DNA of 64,000 nucleotides from Clostridia bacterium (GTDB lineage: Bacteria > Bacillota > Clostridia > Christensenellales > CAG-138), in the NCBI GenBank assembly GCA_017435905.1, contig JAFSEB010000047.1, forward strand, positions 5,062 to 69,061, in the 5' to 3' direction. A model generated the notes under the pieces. The model did no database searches and had not been told where the DNA came from. It was given only the letters and a program-made list of their open reading frames with translations. Of this stretch, positions 5,525 to 32,650 are shown piece by piece (the first letter of the stretch is position 1; each line of letters starts with the position of its first letter). The position numbers and the translations under genes are program-made.

Positions 5525-5734
5525 ATGCAAAAAATCATTCGCAATGCAATCCGCTGCAATATTTGCAATGAGGTCATCGAATCGAAACGTGTGCACGAAT
5601 ATAAAGTCTGCAGCTGTGGCGCCTGCGGTGTGGACGGAGGTCACGAATATCTGCGGCGGACATTCCGTGAGAAAGGCTGTTTTACCGAATTATCCGTCAC
5701 AGAAGTGCCGGAGGAAAACGTCGAACAGCATTGA
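5525..5734 (+). CDS. Small four-Cys zinc-ribbon protein (69 aa)
   Basis: CNICNEV...CSCGACGV motifs. AGGAGG RBS 9 nt upstream of the ATG at 5525. Confidence 0.5.
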   Translation: MQKIIRNAIRCNICNEVIESKRVHEYKVCSCGACGVDGGHEYLRRTFREKGCFTELSVTEVPEENVEQH

Positions 5735-5788
5735 AAAGCGAGCAATATGAAAGAGCCTTCGCAGGAAGGCTCTTTCGATTATTTCGGT

Positions 5789-6640
5789 TTATTCCGCGAT
5801 GCCGCAGACGCCGAAGCCGCCGGGGCCGCAATGCGTGGTAACAACGCCGCCTGTCGGGATCCAAAGGATCTCCCTGAAACCCATTTTTTCTGCCATTGCC
5901 TGTGCATTTTTGCGGATGCTGTCTTTCAGGCCCTTGGAATACACAAACGCAATGATCTCTTTTTTGAAATGATTGGCTTCCGGGAACTCCTGCAGAAGTT
6001 CAAGCGCAACACGATCCATCTTGCCGCGATACTTTTTCGTTGCTTTCAGAAAACCGCCCTGCAGCTCGATCAACGGGTTCAAAGAAAGGATCTTTGCGCC
6101 AAGGTAAGCTGCGTTGCTGACACGGCCGCCTGCACGCAGGTAAGCAAGATCGCCGGGGAAAAAGCCCATCCGCACCTGCTTGCATATCTCATGCACTTTT
6201 GCAATAACTTCTTCATGCGGTGCATCGGGGTTCGCTTCAAGATAACGGGCGACCAGGATCAGCACGAGTGACTGCCCTGCGGAAACATGTCCCGTATCGA
6301 TGCTGGTGATATTCTTCCTGCCCTCAGCCGCCAGGATCGCACTCTGATAGGAACAAGTCGTTACGGCAGAGTAAGCAAGATGCAGAATATGCCTGTCAGG
6401 ATATGCACTTTGGATCTCGTCAAAGACTTTTACGAAATCTTCCACGGTGCTGCCGCTGGTTTTTGTCAGGATCTTGGTGTTTTCAAAAAAGGAATAAATA
6501 TCTTCAACCGGAAAGGTGCCGTCATCCCGTGTTTCATCGCCAAAGGTCACGTGCATGGGAACGGTAACGATCCCGTATTGCTGCGCAAATGCGGCAGGGA
6601 TATCGGAACCGGTCTCTGCCAGCAGAATGTACTTGTTCAT
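5789..6640 (-). CDS. DegV family fatty-acid-binding protein
   Basis: Collinear with the DegV family (LLAETGSDIP..., TSGSTVEDF, GPGGFGV C-terminus). AGGAGA RBS before MNKYILL. Confidence 0.85.
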   Translation of the reverse strand: MNKYILLAETGSDIPAAFAQQYGIVTVPMHVTFGDETRDDGTFPVEDIYSFFENTKILTKTSGSTVEDFVKVFDEIQSAYPDRHILHLAYSAVTTCSYQSAILAAEGRKNITSIDTGHVSAGQSLVLILVARYLEANPDAPHEEVIAKVHEICKQVRMGFFPGDLAYLRAGGRVSNAAYLGAKILSLNPLIELQGGFLKATKKYRGKMDRVALELLQEFPEANHFKKEIIAFVYSKGLKDSIRKNAQAMAEKMGFREILWIPTGGVVTTHCGPGGFGVCGIAE

Positions 6641-27258: not shown

Positions 27259-28050
27259 TCAGATGATCTTTTCTTTCGCAAGCAGTTCGCAAAACGCTTC
27301 AGCGGCTTCCCGGGAAGTGCCTTGGAAGAAGCTGCGTTCCTGGTTATGCTCCGGTGCAAATACACGTTCCACACCGGTGGCAGAACCGTTCGTGCCGTAA
27401 TGCTTCGGGTCTTTATCCTGAAGATCCGCAAGGGAAAGCACGTTCACCCGGTAGGACGACAGCGCCTTCATTCGCCTGAAGGAAGGAAGCCTCGGCATGT
27501 TCATATCCTTCTCAACGGAAACAAGGAACGGCAGCCTGATGCGGTAAGTGCATTCGCTGCGCTCCAGCGTAGTGGTAACAAGCATAGCCCCCTCCCCTGC
27601 GTCCGCAAGCGCCGTTGCGTTGGAAACGTGAGGGATGCCCAGCATTTCTGCCATTTCGGGGCCGACCTGTGCGGTATCACCGTCCGTTGTCTGCTTGCCG
27701 CAAAGGATCAGATCCGGAATGCCGATGGCTTTTACCGCTTCGCTCAAAGCCTTGCTGGTGGCGAGAACATCGGAGCCGCCAAGCGCACGGTCGGAAACAA
27801 GATACGCTTCATCGGCACCCATGTACAGCGCTTCTTTCAGGGAGGATTCCGCCTGCGGCGGACCCATGGAAAGAACCGTTACCTGCCCGCCGTACAGCTC
27901 ACGCAGCCGCAGCGCTTCCTCCACCGCAAAGAGATCGAATGGGTTCAGCTTGCCGCGTGCGCCGTCTCGCATCATATTGCCGGTAACGGGATCCAGCGCA
28001 ACTTTATTCGTTCCGGGCACCTGTTTCATGCAAACAATAATTTTGATCAT
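27259..28050 (-). CDS. etfB: Electron transfer flavoprotein beta subunit
   Basis: MIKIIVCMKQVPG..., LILCGKQTTDGDTAQVGP are typical EtfB motifs. AAGGTGA RBS. Confidence 0.9.
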   Translation of the reverse strand: MIKIIVCMKQVPGTNKVALDPVTGNMMRDGARGKLNPFDLFAVEEALRLRELYGGQVTVLSMGPPQAESSLKEALYMGADEAYLVSDRALGGSDVLATSKALSEAVKAIGIPDLILCGKQTTDGDTAQVGPEMAEMLGIPHVSNATALADAGEGAMLVTTTLERSECTYRIRLPFLVSVEKDMNMPRLPSFRRMKALSSYRVNVLSLADLQDKDPKHYGTNGSATGVERVFAPEHNQERSFFQGTSREAAEAFCELLAKEKII

Positions 28051-28066
28051 ATCTTCACCTTGCGCT

Positions 28067-28089
28067 TTAAAATGGTCTGACCATTTTAA
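28067..28089. promoter_or_regulatory. Perfect 23-bp palindrome, FadR/GntR-type operator (TGGTCTGACCA core) in front of etfB
   Basis: TTAAAATGGTC-T-GACCATTTTAA lies 17-39 nt upstream of the etfB start codon. It is downstream of a TAAAAT -10-like hexamer (28105-28110, minus strand). Confidence 0.6.
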
Positions 28090-28457
28090 TCGAACAAAAA
28101 TGTAATTTTACGAGAAACACAAACAAACGCCGCTCGTTTTCAGCATTTTTTCAGGTCTCTGCTTGCCGTAATGCGATTGATTGATTTAAGTAACAGACGA
28201 AATCAAGAAAAAGAGTTTAAAATTTGGGTGGAGAAATTGGGTTATGATACAGTATGGTCTAACCACTTGCGTTCACTATACAAGATGAGGAATGCATTGT
28301 CAATACGGTTTTTTTATTTTCCGTATCCGTTTTCCAAATATCATCCATGCTTTTTCAACATGCAAAAGCATTCCGTCTTCCTGCTTTCTTGACAGAAAAA
28401 GGCTGCCATTGTATTCTAAAATCACGTGTTTTCTGTAAAAAAATCAGGGTGAGACTA

Positions 28458-31091
28458 ATGAAAAAAACGGTTATCGGCATACTGGCACATGTGGATGCGG
28501 GAAAAACAACGCTGAGCGAGGCCATGCTTTATTTGAGCGGCACCCTCAGAAAGCCCGGCCGTGTTGACCACGGAAATGCCTTTCTTGACAACGATATACA
28601 GGAACGGGAACGGGGCATCACCATTTTCTCCAAGCAGGCGGTCTTCTCCCTTCCGGGGCACGATGTCACGCTGCTAGACACCCCCGGGCATGTGGATTTT
28701 TCCGCCGAGATGGAACGGGCATTGCAGGTGATGGATTGCGCCGTGCTCGTGATCAGCGGCACGGACGGCGTACAGGGACACACCCGCACCCTTTGGCAGC
28801 TTCTTTCCCATTACGGCGTGCCTGCCTTTGTTTTTGTAAACAAGATGGATCTTGCCGGTGCACAAAAGGAGCATATCCTTTCGCAGCTGCAGCAGCAGTT
28901 GAGCGGCAGCATCGTGGACTTTACCGCAAAAACCCCACTTCGGGACGAAGCATTGGCCACTGCCGATGAAGCCTCCCTTGAAGAATACCTTGAACATGGC
29001 AGGTTAGCCGATGATACCGTCCGCTCCCTCGTCGGGCAGCGCAAGGCTTTCCCCTGCTATTTCGGTGCGGCGCTGAAATTTGACGGCGTATCCGCATTTT
29101 TGGAAGGGCTTGATGCCTTTGTCCCCTCTCCGCAATACGGCGATGCATTCGGAGCAAAGGTATTCAAGATCTCCCGTGACAGCAAAAACAACCGTCTTAC
29201 CTGGATGAAGATCACAGGCGGCGTTCTCCGTCCGAAAACGGTCCTTTCATTCCTGAAAAACGATATGCCTGTTGAGGAAAAGGCCGATCAGCTGCGCCTG
29301 TATTCGGGTGCAAAATTCGAAGCTGCAGATTGCGCAGCGGCAGGTTCCGTGATCGCCGTAACAGGTCTTTCCGCCACCTATGCCGGGCAGGGGCTCGGCA
29401 AAGAAAAGGATGCCGCCGATGCTTTTCTTGAGCCTGTGCTGAACTATCGGCTCATTCTGCCCGAAGGCACGGAACCGCACACGGTGCTGCCGAAGCTCAG
29501 GCAGCTTGAAGAAGAAGATCCGCTGCTTCGCATCCTTTGGAACGAGCAATGGCGTGAAATCCATGTGCGGCTGATGGGACAGGTGCAGCTTGAAGTGCTC
29601 AAGCGGCTGATCCGTGACCGCTTTTCCCTTGATGTCAGCTTTGATGCAGGAAAGGTGGTTTATAAAGAAACCGTTGCAAACACGGTGGAAGGCGTCGGCC
29701 ACTTTGAACCTCTGCGGCACTATGCGGAAGTGCACCTTCTCATCTCCCCCGGCGAACGGGGCAGCGGCGTCAGGATCGCATCCTCCGTTTCCACGGATGT
29801 ACTGGACCTGAACTGGCAGCGGCTCATCTTCACGCATCTTTTGGAGCGGGAGCATCCGGGCGTACTGACCGGCTCTCCGCTGACGGATGTCAGCATCACC
29901 CTTGCTGCCGGGCGTGCGCACCTCAAGCATACGGAAGGCGGCGACTTCCGTCAGGCGACATACCGTGCTATCCGTCAGGGATTGATGCAGGCGGAATCCG
30001 TGCTCCTTGAACCCTTCTACGATTTCCGTCTGGAGCTGCCCCATGCCAATGTGGGGCGTGCGCTCAACGATCTGCAAAACATGGGCGCTGTTACGGAGCC
30101 GCCTGAAATCCAAGGCGATGTCACGCTCCTCAAAGGCTATGCCCCCGTTGCAGGTCTGCAGGACTACTGGCAGGAGGTGACCGCTTACACACGGGGACTT
30201 GGACAGCTTTCCTGCTCCCTTCGAGGCTATGAACGCTGCCGCAGCGCACAGGACGTGATCGATTCCATCGGCTATGACCCCGAGCGTGATACCGAAAACC
30301 CGGCGGATTCCGTCTTTTGCAGCCATGGAGCCGGCACTGTCATAAAATGGAGCGAAGTGCCTTCCCATATGCACCTTGAAAGCTGTCTTAAGCCCCAAAG
30401 GGAAAGTGCACCGGCTGCCGCTCCCTCCCCCGTTCGCCGCAGCTATGGCGCAGCCCTTGATAAGGAGCTTGCCGCCATCTTTGAACGCACCTACGGCAAG
30501 GCGGACGAGCGTGCATTCCGCCCGCAGCAAAAGAGCGCCGCACGCCCTTCGCTGAGGGAAAGCTATCATATTGCGCCAAGGGAAAATAAGCCGGAATACC
30601 TGCTGGTGGACGGCTACAACATCATCTTCTCCTGGGAAGAGCTGAAAGCCCTTGCAAAGGAAGATCTGGCAGCTGCCCGTGGGCTTCTTGAGGATATTCT
30701 TGCGGACTACAGAGCCTTCCACGATTGCACTGTGATCCTCGTATTCGATGCGTACATGGTAAAGGGCAATCCCGGATCCGTGGAAAAACGGAACGGGATC
30801 TACATCGTCTACACAAAGGAAGCGGAAACGGCGGATGTTTACATTGAACGTACCACATACGCCCTTGGCAAAAACTGCAGCATACGGGTCGCCACCTCCG
30901 ATGCGTTGGAGCAAATGATCATCCTCGGTCACGGCGCCCTCCGCATCAGTGCCAATGCCTTTCGCCTTGAAATGGAGGAAACGGCAGGCAGGATCGCAGA
31001 GCTGGTGCGTGCGTACAATGCAAAGAACACGGAAAAGCACCGCATCCGTGATGCTGCACGCATCCGCAGCGGTGACAACAAAACACAGTAA
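28458..31091 (+). CDS. TetM/EF-G-like translational GTPase fused to a C-terminal Rae1/YacP-type NYN ribonuclease domain (877 aa)
   Basis: G1 AHVDAGKT, G2 RGITI, G3 DTPGH, G4 NKMD, and collinearity with ribosomal-protection proteins. The last 165 aa (from 30594) carry LLVDGYN, LVFDA, TKEAETADVYIE, VATSDALEQ, GALR as in B. subtilis YacP. Confidence 0.85.
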   Translation: MKKTVIGILAHVDAGKTTLSEAMLYLSGTLRKPGRVDHGNAFLDNDIQERERGITIFSKQAVFSLPGHDVTLLDTPGHVDFSAEMERALQVMDCAVLVISGTDGVQGHTRTLWQLLSHYGVPAFVFVNKMDLAGAQKEHILSQLQQQLSGSIVDFTAKTPLRDEALATADEASLEEYLEHGRLADDTVRSLVGQRKAFPCYFGAALKFDGVSAFLEGLDAFVPSPQYGDAFGAKVFKISRDSKNNRLTWMKITGGVLRPKTVLSFLKNDMPVEEKADQLRLYSGAKFEAADCAAAGSVIAVTGLSATYAGQGLGKEKDAADAFLEPVLNYRLILPEGTEPHTVLPKLRQLEEEDPLLRILWNEQWREIHVRLMGQVQLEVLKRLIRDRFSLDVSFDAGKVVYKETVANTVEGVGHFEPLRHYAEVHLLISPGERGSGVRIASSVSTDVLDLNWQRLIFTHLLEREHPGVLTGSPLTDVSITLAAGRAHLKHTEGGDFRQATYRAIRQGLMQAESVLLEPFYDFRLELPHANVGRALNDLQNMGAVTEPPEIQGDVTLLKGYAPVAGLQDYWQEVTAYTRGLGQLSCSLRGYERCRSAQDVIDSIGYDPERDTENPADSVFCSHGAGTVIKWSEVPSHMHLESCLKPQRESAPAAAPSPVRRSYGAALDKELAAIFERTYGKADERAFRPQQKSAARPSLRESYHIAPRENKPEYLLVDGYNIIFSWEELKALAKEDLAAARGLLEDILADYRAFHDCTVILVFDAYMVKGNPGSVEKRNGIYIVYTKEAETADVYIERTTYALGKNCSIRVATSDALEQMIILGHGALRISANAFRLEMEETAGRIAELVRAYNAKNTEKHRIRDAARIRSGDNKTQ

Positions 31092-31111
31092 ACCAAAACG
31101 GAGAGTTTGAT

Positions 31112-31681
31112 ATGACGGAAAGAGAAAAGGCGCTGGCCGGTTTGGAATTTATCCGGGGCGACAAAGACCTCAAAAAGCAAAGGGACAGGGCCGAAGCGCT
31201 TTGCTTCCGCCTGAATGCCGCATCCCCCGAAAAGCAGGAGGAGCGAAACGCCATCCTGCAGGAACTGATCGGGGATATCGGCGAGGACTGCTATATCAAA
31301 TCGCCCTTCATCTGCGAATACGGCTCCTATATTTCCCTTGGGAAGAACTTTTTTGCGAATTACAACTGCAAGCTGATGGACGGCGGCAGGATCGCCTTCG
31401 GCGATCACGTTTTGGTTGGCCCCGACTGCACATTCGTCACCGCAGACCACGCCATCGACCCGGAAAGGCGGCTTAAAGGATACCAGATTTTCAGACCCAT
31501 CACCGTTGGAAACAATGTTTGGTTCGGTGCCGGCGTCATCGTTTGCCCCGGCGTTTCCATCGGCGACAACTGCGTGATCGGCGCCGGCAGCGTTGTCACG
31601 AAGGATATCCCTGCCAACTCTGTTGCGGTGGGCAATCCCTGCAGGGTGATCCGCAAGGTCTCCGGCAGCGATTCGGAATAA
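31112..31681 (+). CDS. Sugar O-acetyltransferase (maltose/galactoside acetyltransferase family, left-handed beta-helix)
   Basis: N-terminal Mac domain (MLAGELY-like: ALAGLEFIRGD) and hexapeptide repeats (VWFGAGVIVCPGVSIGDNCVIGAGSVV). Confidence 0.85.
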   Translation: MTEREKALAGLEFIRGDKDLKKQRDRAEALCFRLNAASPEKQEERNAILQELIGDIGEDCYIKSPFICEYGSYISLGKNFFANYNCKLMDGGRIAFGDHVLVGPDCTFVTADHAIDPERRLKGYQIFRPITVGNNVWFGAGVIVCPGVSIGDNCVIGAGSVVTKDIPANSVAVGNPCRVIRKVSGSDSE

Positions 31682-31702
31682 ACAGCATAAAGCAGACAAT
31701 AT

Positions 31703-31743
31703 CAAAACGATCCTCTGCAAACTGCAGAGGATCGTTCGTTTTA
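31703..31743. terminator. Bidirectional terminator between convergent genes
   Basis: AACGATCCTCTGCA-AAC-TGCAGAGGATCGTT (14-bp perfect stem), flanked by A- and T-runs. Confidence 0.7.
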
Positions 31744-31747
31744 ATAT

Positions 31748-32650
31748 TTATGCTTTATCCGACCGCTTTGCTTTCCGTTCCGCATGGAGCTTTTCCATGG
31801 AGAAGCCACGCCCCGTTACTTCCTTCACACGGGATACCGTGACGAATGCATTGGCATCCGCACGGCGAATGGCTTCGTGTACGGCATGCAGCTTGCGCTG
31901 CTGCACCACACAGAGGATCGCCTTTCCTGCCGCCCGTTCAAAACCCGTTTCCATCAGCAGCATGGAAACGCCCACATCAAGGTCATTAAGAAGCGTTTCA
32001 CGAATATTCTCATACTGCTCCGATATCACCAGCAGCTGGATCTGTTCCTGCCCCATCACCACCACTCGGTTCATGGCAAGGGTGGTCAAAATAAGTGCCA
32101 GCACACCGTAGAGGATCTGTTCCGGCGTAGAGAAAAACGCCTGTGCGCCAAGGATGATAAAATCCACCACGTACAGTAATGCCGCCACGGAAATATGCGT
32201 GTATTTTCCGATGACCATTGCAAGGATATCCGTGCCGCCGGTAGAAGCACCCTGCCTGACGATCAGCCCGATGCCGATGCCAAGGATCAATCCGCCGAAA
32301 ATACTCGAAAGCATGATATTGCCTGCGGAAAACGCAGCAAGGCCGGGTATCCGCTCAAAAACGCCGAGAAGAGCCGGGTAGAGAACAGAGCTTGCAAGGG
32401 TGGTCAGCGCAAAATACTTGCCAAGAACCGCCGCACCAAGAAGGAACAGCCCTACGTTGATCACAAACACCGCAAGGGAAAGATCGACGGAGAAAAAGTG
32501 ATCGATGGAAAGGCCGATGCCCGTGGAACCGCCCATCAGGATGCCGTTCGGGACAATGAAAACGGAAACCGCCAATGCATTGCAGATATTACCCAGCAAT
32601 ACACCGGAGCCCGTTGTGATGTATTTACGGATCGTACTGTTTTTCATCAT
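31748..32650 (-). CDS. YitT-family membrane protein (DUF161/DUF2179)
   Basis: Five TM segments followed by a C-terminal soluble DUF2179-like domain. The start is ambiguous (ATG at 32650 or 32647). Confidence 0.8.
   Translation of the reverse strand: MMKNSTIRKYITTGSGVLLGNICNALAVSVFIVPNGILMGGSTGIGLSIDHFFSVDLSLAVFVINVGLFLLGAAVLGKYFALTTLASSVLYPALLGVFERIPGLAAFSAGNIMLSSIFGGLILGIGIGLIVRQGASTGGTDILAMVIGKYTHISVAALLYVVDFIILGAQAFFSTPEQILYGVLALILTTLAMNRVVVMGQEQIQLLVISEQYENIRETLLNDLDVGVSMLLMETGFERAAGKAILCVVQQRKLHAVHEAIRRADANAFVTVSRVKEVTGRGFSMEKLHAERKAKRSDKA

Follow-up and report, generated by a model that had tools for sequence, protein, structure and literature searches.

A Tet/EF-G-like translational GTPase fused to a Rae1-type NYN ribonuclease domain in Clostridia

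The DNA analysed here, hereafter the window, is a stretch of 64,000 nucleotides from a Clostridia bacterium (assembly GCA_017435905.1, contig JAFSEB010000047.1, positions 5,062 to 69,061 of the forward strand), the genome of which measures 2.24 Mb and is 93.75% complete. The subject of this report is a single gene of the window which encodes a GTPase module resembling the tetracycline ribosomal protection proteins (Tet) and EF-G, followed by a tether and a C-terminal ribonuclease domain of the NYN_YacP family, to which Bacillus subtilis Rae1 (YacP) belongs. The gene probably shares its transcription unit with a Maa-like acetyltransferase gene and lies between a divergent etfB-etfA-lctD operon on one side and convergent yitT and matE genes on the other.

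In B. subtilis, Rae1 cuts mRNA, in a reaction that depends on translation, 12 nt upstream of the ribosomal A site, at stalled or collided ribosomes, and cleavage in the A site itself has been withdrawn by the same laboratory that had proposed it (PMC12407103). The enzyme requires collisions (bioRxiv 10.64898/2026.10.09.757949) and produces substrates for trans-translation (tmRNA) (PMC13622287). All of its experimentally mapped substrates are translated mRNAs (PMC12407103, PMC10351889, PMC13622287). The laboratory that recognised Rae1 as a ribosome-associated nuclease stated in a 2026 preprint that the mechanism will have to wait for a structure of the enzyme on collided ribosomes (bioRxiv 10.64898/2026.10.09.757949).

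The architecture has been catalogued twice before. Atkinson (2015; PMC4342817) noted a TetM-like/NYN_YacP fusion in 'ten species of clostridiales' and raised the possibility of a novel mechanism of resistance. In the second survey, Matelska et al. (2017; PMC5499597) recorded the fusion in 'some Clostridia' with an unclear function. The gene described here has the same architecture, belongs to the same family and is a member of that catalogued group. No experimental work on the fusion family was found in the literature, and no mention of the fusion was found in those Rae1 papers of 2023-2026 that were searched for it; a survey of Rae1 presence (PMC13622287) likewise makes no mention of a fused variant. 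A preliminary description of this locus, made from the sequence alone, had been aware of no experimental work on such an architecture, which agrees with the above, although the architecture itself was in print in 2015 and 2017. New here relative to those two surveys are the extent of the fusion (about 37% of a 400-genome sample of the class and at least 600 species-level genomes), the finding that no sampled genome holds both a fused and a free Rae1 together with the emptied ancestral slot, and the grouping of the fused NYN domains in one clade, the existence of GTPase relatives without a fusion and the anatomy of the tether.

Architecture of the fusion protein

Translation of 28458-31091 on the forward strand is free of internal stop codons and yields 877 aa (Table 1). 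In the list of open reading frames (ORFs), an ATG at 28347 opens a longer frame through the same gene; position 28458 was chosen as the start because the N-termini of the homologues all read MKK..IGILAHVDAGKT and a Shine-Dalgarno-like GGGTGAG lies immediately 5' of it. Residue conservation is given throughout for an alignment of 81 diverse relatives with 40-64% identity. AlphaFold2 (AF2), run on the family alignment, returned a confident EF-G-like body and a confident NYN domain (mean predicted local distance difference test score (pLDDT) 91.3, predicted template modelling score 0.74).

Residues 1-640 make up the GTPase module. Besides the P-loop, its G domain carries RGITI at residues 52-56, including Thr55 of switch I, DTPGH at residues 74-78, with His78 in the catalytic position (28689-28691), and NKMD at residues 128-131 (28839-28850); A10, V12, D13, G15, K16, T17, T55, D74-H78, K129 and D131 are invariant. 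The Pfam matches to domains II and III both fall slightly under their gathering scores, and AF2 models these domains with pLDDT > 90. With domains II-V in the order of EF-G, and with G1-G4 and the switch II His all in place, the module has the make-up of the translational GTPase superfamily, and the best Foldseek matches in the PDB are ribosome-bound EF-G structures.

The tip of domain IV bears two family-specific motifs, GVGHFEPLRHYAEVH (residues 412-426) and GRAHLKHTEGGDFRQAT (residues 485-501), which are near-invariant across the family and common to the unfused relatives described below, but not to this genome's own EF-G, which is encoded separately on contig C32. The first of them constitutes loop I, which is shorter than the corresponding loop of TetM or EF-G. 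Loop III, as aligned, reads GRAHLKHTEGGDFR in the fusion protein, GLYYSPVSTPADFR in TetM and GSYHDVDSSEMAFK in EF-G.

Domain V is followed by a GTPase C-terminal extension (residues 597-640) with the motif GYDPExDxxNPxDSVFCSHGAG..V.W..V...MH, for which Pfam gave no match. AF2 models the extension with a pLDDT of about 96 and with strands at 618-622 and 625-629, and S618, F620, G624 and H639 are conserved in at least 90% of the relatives. Conserved Cys and His residues between positions 594 and 639 (30237-30374), namely C594 (69 of the 81 relatives), C621 (71), H623 (57) and H639 (75), flank the predicted beta-hairpin, and each of the four unfused relatives that were examined has MHC or IHC as its last residues. 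Judging from this residue pattern, the cluster around the hairpin may be a metal-binding knuckle.

The tether consists of two segments, residues 641-667 and 682-713, which are variable and predicted to be disordered, and of a conserved 14-aa helix between them, DKELAAIFERTYGK (residues 668-681, nt 30459-30500; pattern [DE]xELxxIFxRT[YF]G). In the AF2 model, the helix occupies residues 666-679 and disorder is confined to 649-667 and 685-705. Tether length in the relatives ranges from 60 to 109 aa with a median of 76, and its charge is unevenly distributed, the first segment being slightly acidic on average (median -1) and the second basic (median +5).

The C-terminal module matches NYN_YacP (PF05991) over residues 715-863 with E = 1.6e-45 and 155.5 bits against a cut-off of 24.6, and the crystal chains of B. 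subtilis YacP/Rae1 (5mq8 and 5mq9) align to it with E = 2.6e-24. The hallmark of Rae1/YacP proteins is a set of four active-site Asp residues with GYN after the first of these (Matelska 2017, PMC5499597). Here, D718, D764, D793 and D815 correspond to D7, D53, D81 and D104 of B. subtilis Rae1, GYN occupies residues 719-721, and a long C-terminal helix spans residues 832-870. D718, Y720, N721, D764, T786, D793 and D815 are invariant. The invariance of these residues and of those in the GTPase motifs indicates that the two catalytic centres are intact and that strong purifying selection acts on them.

Most of the architecture given in the preliminary description is borne out by these results. The single 877-aa ORF with G1-G4 (AHVDAGKT, RGITI, DTPGH, NKMD) was confirmed by translation and Pfam, and the C-terminal resemblance to YacP/Rae1, first seen by eye, by the PF05991 score and the alignment of the crystal chains. 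Two outcomes that had been named as fatal, a frame break at about 30300-30600 dividing the gene into two in relatives and a loss of the NYN acidic residues on proper alignment, did not materialise, as such a break was not seen and all four Asp are invariant. The linker, described as about 70 aa rich in Pro, Ala and Arg, is variable and disordered at 641-667 and 682-713 but not featureless, since 668-681 is a conserved helix and 597-640 is a folded extension of the GTPase.

Table 1. Coordinates of the fusion gene, its domains and associated features. Positions are those of the window unless loci are named.
Feature	Residues	Position	Strand	Basis or remark
Candidate promoter TTGACA-17-TATTCT		28389..28417	+	About 40 nt before the start codon; consensus scan, 10/12 matches
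Tet/EF-G-like GTPase-Rae1 fusion gene	1-877	28458..31091	+	ORF translation; stop codon 31089-31091
G domain	1-224	28458..29129	+	Pfam GTP_EFTU 5-224, E = 2e-51
P-loop AHVDAGKT	10-17	28485-28508	+	G1 motif
Domains II and III	233-395	29154..29642	+	Pfam EF-G_D2 233-311, EFG_III 341-395
Domain IV	398-512	29649..29993	+	Pfam EFG_IV; alignment to TetM, TetO and EF-G
Domain V	515-596	30000..30245	+	Pfam EFG_C, E = 4.1e-14
GTPase C-terminal extension	597-640	30246..30377	+	Helix and beta-hairpin; conserved
Tether (73 aa)	641-713	30378..30596	+	Three parts: variable segment, conserved helix, variable basic segment
Rae1/YacP NYN ribonuclease domain	714-877	30597..31088	+	Pfam NYN_YacP
NYN aspartate	Asp718	30609-30611	+	Alignment
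NYN aspartate	Asp764	30747-30749	+	Alignment
NYN aspartate	Asp793	30834-30836	+	Alignment
NYN aspartate	Asp815	30900-30902	+	Alignment
Maa-like hexapeptide acetyltransferase gene		31112..31681	+	Pfam Hexapep and Mac; 20 nt 3' of the fusion gene
Intrinsic-terminator-like hairpin		31706..31736	+	14-bp stem; ends the transcription unit
ylmH next to the fusion gene in relatives		About 5550-6420 in each of loci L073, L089, L091, L099 and L104

Spread of the fusion and the fate of free rae1

The fusion is widespread and of uniform architecture. The best 120 matches in a search of 5.8 billion proteins are all 860-920 aa long with an identical set of Pfam domains, a search of representatives clustered at 50% identity gave more than 150 full-length clusters with E < 1e-194, and full-length homologues number thousands in total. 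Scanning one genome per species returned at least 600 matching stretches, the best 80 of which are all full length. Carriers among these best 80 belong to the Oscillospiraceae (Flavonifractor, Lawsonibacter, Intestinimonas, Dysosmobacter and Faecalibacterium prausnitzii), the Lachnospiraceae (Blautia, Dorea, Roseburia, Anaerobutyricum, Marvinbryantia, Herbinix and others), and the Ruminococcaceae, Acutalibacteraceae, Peptostreptococcaceae, Eubacteriaceae and Monoglobales. An artefact of assembly or frameshifting was considered and is ruled out by the thousands of full-length homologues, by the continuous frame of 843-934 aa found in about 149 of the 400 sampled genomes, and by a 99%-identical 877-aa protein encoded on another contig.

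The relation between fused and free Rae1 was assessed in the 400 genomes, all of the same class, in which the fusion-type GTPase was counted at E <= 1e-120. NYN_YacP is present in 261 genomes, 156 of which also hold the fusion-type GTPase; at least 7 of the latter combine an unfused GTPase with a free Rae1, and about 149 fusions remain. Free Rae1 alone occurs in 105 genomes and the GTPase without Rae1 in 8, and the number of genomes with a fusion and a genuine second Rae1 is zero. NYN_YacP is almost always single copy, in an open frame of either about 170-200 aa or 843-934 aa, and the sole match in the genome studied here is the fusion itself. Four genomes with a double match were dismissed as cases of co-occurrence: two of the second matches are 21-bit noise, one reflects a gene spread over two contigs, and the fourth genome is a 61%-complete metagenome-assembled genome (MAG) with two fusions.

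At 20 of 20 loci from diverse families, free rae1 sits in an rlmB-rae1-sigH slot, with all three genes visible at 16 loci and one flank gene within short flanks at the other 4 (rlmB in 17 and sigH in 19). In the genome studied here, contig C35 reads mrnC-thyX-rlmB-sigH, with an overlap between rlmB and the sigH-like sigma-factor gene that leaves the slot without rae1. An NYN gene follows rlmB in none of 20 other fusion genomes, 8 of which have a gap from rlmB to sigH too small to hold rae1. At the slot of the present genome (C35:2036-5270, reverse strand), it was also observed that thyX sits between mrnC and rlmB, and that the rlmB frame would have an N-terminal extension of about 100 aa rich in Lys, Glu and Arg if its first start codon were used.

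In a tree of NYN domains, 81 fused domains and two free ones form one clade (Shimodaira-Hasegawa-like approximate likelihood ratio test (SH-aLRT) support 97) nested among Clostridial Rae1; the two free domains still lie after rlmB. On the evidence of this tree, the data show the fused NYN domain to descend from a Clostridial rae1. The simplest history is that a copy of Clostridial rae1 joined a pre-existing or co-evolving gene for a Tet-like GTPase, that the ancestral rae1 was then lost, and that the fusion has since served as the Rae1 of the cell.

Unfused relatives of the GTPase also exist. At about 650 aa and 44-49% identity, they have the two loop motifs as well as the C-terminal extension in common with the fusions, end a few residues past that extension, and likewise score below the Tet cut-off; some occur in genomes without any Rae1. 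The shared motifs and extension mark the family out, at the level of sequence, as a distinct subfamily of translational GTPases, most members of which carry Rae1, with a body that would be a ribosome factor in its own right. Four sampled unfused GTPases form one clade (SH-aLRT 100), the placement of which relative to the fusions is compatible both with an ancestral unfused form and with a secondary loss of NYN. The eight GTPase-only genomes without NYN_YacP (G018, G038, G051, G072, G104, G148, G228 and G396; the frames examined are 658-729 aa) suggest that the nuclease domain has been lost or, in some of them, that the assembly is fragmented. Two of these, G018 and G148, are congeneric with G306, which holds a full fusion. 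In G189 (L002:5986-8872, reverse strand), the gene of an unfused 650-aa GTPase overlaps the upstream gene of an RlmK/L-like (UPF0020) methyltransferase by 8 nt, and the free Rae1 is encoded on a different contig.

Some further observations concern the limits of this distribution. Fifteen sampled genomes of the same order (0.8-2.6 Mb, five other families) have neither NYN_YacP nor the fusion-type GTPase, such that the present genome is an exception within its order in carrying the fusion. On contig C2 of G121 (126183-128758), a GTPase (588-aa frame) and an NYN protein (351-aa frame) are encoded adjacently in separate frames, possibly a frameshifted or split copy of the fusion. Full-length fusion genes were also found in two MAGs labelled Alloprevotella sp. 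and uncultured Bacteroides sp. (L069 and L085), for which mis-binned Clostridia contigs are likelier than transfer.

Transcription unit and gene neighbourhood

The promoter listed in Table 1 is to be read as a candidate only, as promoter-like sites in the region are in total no more numerous than in shuffled sequence. An Rfam search of 27900-31900, in which a regulatory leader of the tet(M) type was sought, returned no meaningful leader or attenuator. The downstream Maa-like gene is probably co-transcribed with the fusion gene, yet it probably stands outside the system; a relative with 83% identity (L031), syntenic at this locus in other respects, does not have it, and the gene resembles a recent insertion into the fusion's transcription unit.

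The neighbours of the fusion gene vary between lineages, and no mobile-element or defence genes were found in its gene context. A conserved operon partner was looked for among the immediate downstream ORFs of 80 related loci and was rejected, the largest cluster having no more than 3 members. The gene ylmH, the product of which functions in ribosome quality control (PMC11317155), follows the fusion gene directly, or overlaps the stop codon of the latter, at 5 of 84 related loci, a linkage that counts in favour of the function proposed below. The ylmH of the present genome is found on contig C5, away from the window.

Proposed function, alternatives and known systems

On balance, we consider that the gene is probably the Rae1 of its lineage, an endoribonuclease acting at stalled or collided ribosomes that is permanently tethered to a Tet/EF-G-like translational GTPase. 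In the proposed mechanism, the GTPase body in its GTP form would dock in the ribosomal factor-binding site, and the private, His-rich tip of domain IV would enter the decoding centre and thereby select ribosomes in which the A site or translocation is blocked, that is, ribosomes that have stalled or that are unable to translocate after running into a stalled one. By way of the tether of 60-109 aa, the NYN domain would gain access to the mRNA at the ribosome's edge, where free Rae1 is reported to cut, at -12 from the A-site codon and at the collision interface. Hydrolysis of GTP on the sarcin-ricin loop would time release or license cleavage, and the truncated mRNA would be passed on to trans-translation or ribosome quality control. 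The preferred geometry would have the GTPase bind the trailing ribosome of a disome, the one blocked in translocation, and would place the nuclease at the mRNA entry side of that ribosome, because the -12 site of the leading ribosome adjoins the mRNA entry of the trailing one, on the side of the trailing factor-binding site. This geometry is the least certain step of the proposal.

Two elements of the preliminary description have to be given up at this point. Its account of Rae1 as an A-site endoribonuclease is outdated, and with a cut 12 nt upstream of the A site (PMC12407103) its picture of both modules working at the same ribosomal site falls as well, so that the tether must bridge a distance. 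Among the roles which it had put forward, surveillance of stalled ribosomes is the best reading, whereas defence or shut-off does not stand, for reasons given below.

Several points count against the function proposed here. The fusion family is credited with RNA cleavage, GTPase activity and ribosome binding by homology. The mutual exclusivity of fused and free Rae1 could equally fit a fusion that has kept its Rae1 activity while the GTPase serves an unrelated role. The linkage to ylmH is limited to a few lineages and is absent in the window. Finally, the factor-binding site is far from the reported Rae1 cut site on a single ribosome, so the tether would have to span that distance or the modules would have to act on neighbouring ribosomes.

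The same reading can be carried further, to a fusion that is a Rosetta stone for Rae1 recruitment: with the body on the trailing ribosome of a disome, the NYN domain on the inter-ribosome mRNA and a single GTP-gated cut, the protein would be a one-polypeptide bacterial enzyme of no-go decay. This extension is tentative and we give it a limited chance of being right. If it were true, the free Rae1 of Bacilli and cyanobacteria would bind near the factor-binding or mRNA-entry side of the collided ribosome or depend on a factor-site GTPase, and the relatives of about 650 aa that lack the nuclease would represent stall-sensing translation factors of a class so far unrecognised. The natural and ancient covalent union of Rae1 with a factor-site GTPase offers a testable clue to where the nuclease acts and how it may be gated. 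For many dominant gut commensals, Faecalibacterium, Blautia, Roseburia and Flavonifractor among them, the fused protein is the sole Rae1.

Alternatively, the fusion may secure only the co-expression or co-localisation of two independent modules near ribosomes, with GTP hydrolysis exerting no control over cleavage. Each module exists and presumably works alone, as seen from the 105 genomes with free Rae1 and the 8 with the GTPase and no Rae1, and the tether, besides being long, is disordered in part and differs in length between relatives. We nevertheless regard this explanation as unlikely, given that the fusion has persisted in numerous families, in at least 600 species-level genomes and with a single NYN clade, and that the conserved 14-aa helix and the charge asymmetry of the tether argue for a constrained physical coupling.

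The substrate could also be rRNA or tRNA instead of mRNA, the GTPase docking on ribosomes that are defective, idle or immature and the NYN domain cutting for turnover, maturation or inactivation. A role in rRNA or tRNA was proposed earlier (PMC5499597) from the position of the ancestral rae1 among genes for rRNA processing and modification (mrnC, rlmB), and it would also suit the one unfused relative (L002) whose gene overlaps that of the RlmK/L-like methyltransferase; a factor-site protein with a basic tether would moreover be nearer to rRNA than to the mRNA exit. It is distinctly unlikely all the same, for the mapped Rae1 substrates are without exception translated mRNAs (PMC12407103, PMC10351889, PMC13622287), the NYN domain is a close and catalytically intact descendant of rae1, and fused and free Rae1 never occur together in the sample, which fits a retained Rae1 job.

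The possibility raised by Atkinson (2015), a tetracycline ribosomal protection protein with an added RNase as a variant resistance mechanism, is highly improbable, and the preliminary description was right to warn against reading the gene as a resistance determinant. The best-scoring NCBIfam model is indeed tet_protect (NF012153), over domains IV-V TetM and TetO rank among the solved structures that align best, and some databases label relatives as TetM/W/O/S family. The tet_protect score of 403.1 bits, however, is about half of the curated cut-off of 775, and every specific Tet model lies far below its own (TetM/W/O/S, 261.9 against 1100; Otr(A), 309.7 against 900). Tet(M) and Tet(O) share with the fusion protein a five-domain EF-G-like body of about 640 aa, a short G' region and a loop III of equal length. 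At the tip of that loop, TetM has YYSPVS (GLYYSPVST), in which Pro509 overlaps tetracycline (PMC7456112), where the fusion protein has RAHLKHTE (GRAHLKHTEGG); its loop I is two residues shorter than that of TetM or TetO and carries a private invariant motif, and its C-terminal extension differs from that of TetM. Published mutants suggest that loop conformation outweighs individual residues (PMC4750697), which together with the equal length of loop III is a caveat on the argument from the tip residues. Beyond the protein itself, the gene adds a nuclease domain, lies in a syntenic chromosomal context without mobile-element genes, has no attenuator leader upstream in the Rfam search, and is single copy in about 37% of the sampled genomes, where it replaces the housekeeping rae1. 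Residual tetracycline protection by the fusion protein is unlikely. Since some public records label fusion genes as TetM-family resistance genes, estimates of the gut resistome could be inflated if these labels were taken at face value.

A toxin or defence effector that shuts off translation upon stress or phage attack is scarcely credible: nuclease and NTPase fusions are common in defence systems, but no PADLOC-DB family matched the fusion protein at E <= 0.01, there is no defence-island, toxin-antitoxin or mobile context, and the gene, one copy per genome in stable synteny, replaces a housekeeping gene.

With EF-G, the fusion protein shares the overall fold, the GTPase motifs and, in loop III, a His that aligns with the EF-G loop His. 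It differs from EF-G in loop I, which is long in EF-G (GGxGQ[YF]G) and four residues shorter, with another sequence, in the fusion protein, and it scores far under the cut-offs of the EF-G models, with 253 against 659.4 for TIGR00484. The resemblance to B. subtilis Rae1/YacP extends to the NYN_YacP fold, the GYN motif, the four Asp, the C-terminal helical tail and the presence of one copy per genome. Free Rae1 stands alone, in frames of about 170-200 aa in the sampled Clostridia, and is encoded between rlmB and sigH, whereas the fused domain comes after 640 aa of GTPase and 73 aa of tether, and its gene lies outside the ancestral slot.

The bacterial collision sensors MutS2/RqcU and SmrB, and Hbs1-Dom34 with Cue2/NONU-1 in eukaryotic no-go decay, offer an analogy only. 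Those systems employ, for example, an ABC-type ATPase and an SMR nuclease in place of a translational GTPase and an NYN domain, and the folds are unrelated, such that no homology is implied. What the fusion protein would have in common with them is the coupling of an NTPase or ribosome-docking module to an endonuclease at stalled or collided ribosomes, by which the products are fed into rescue.

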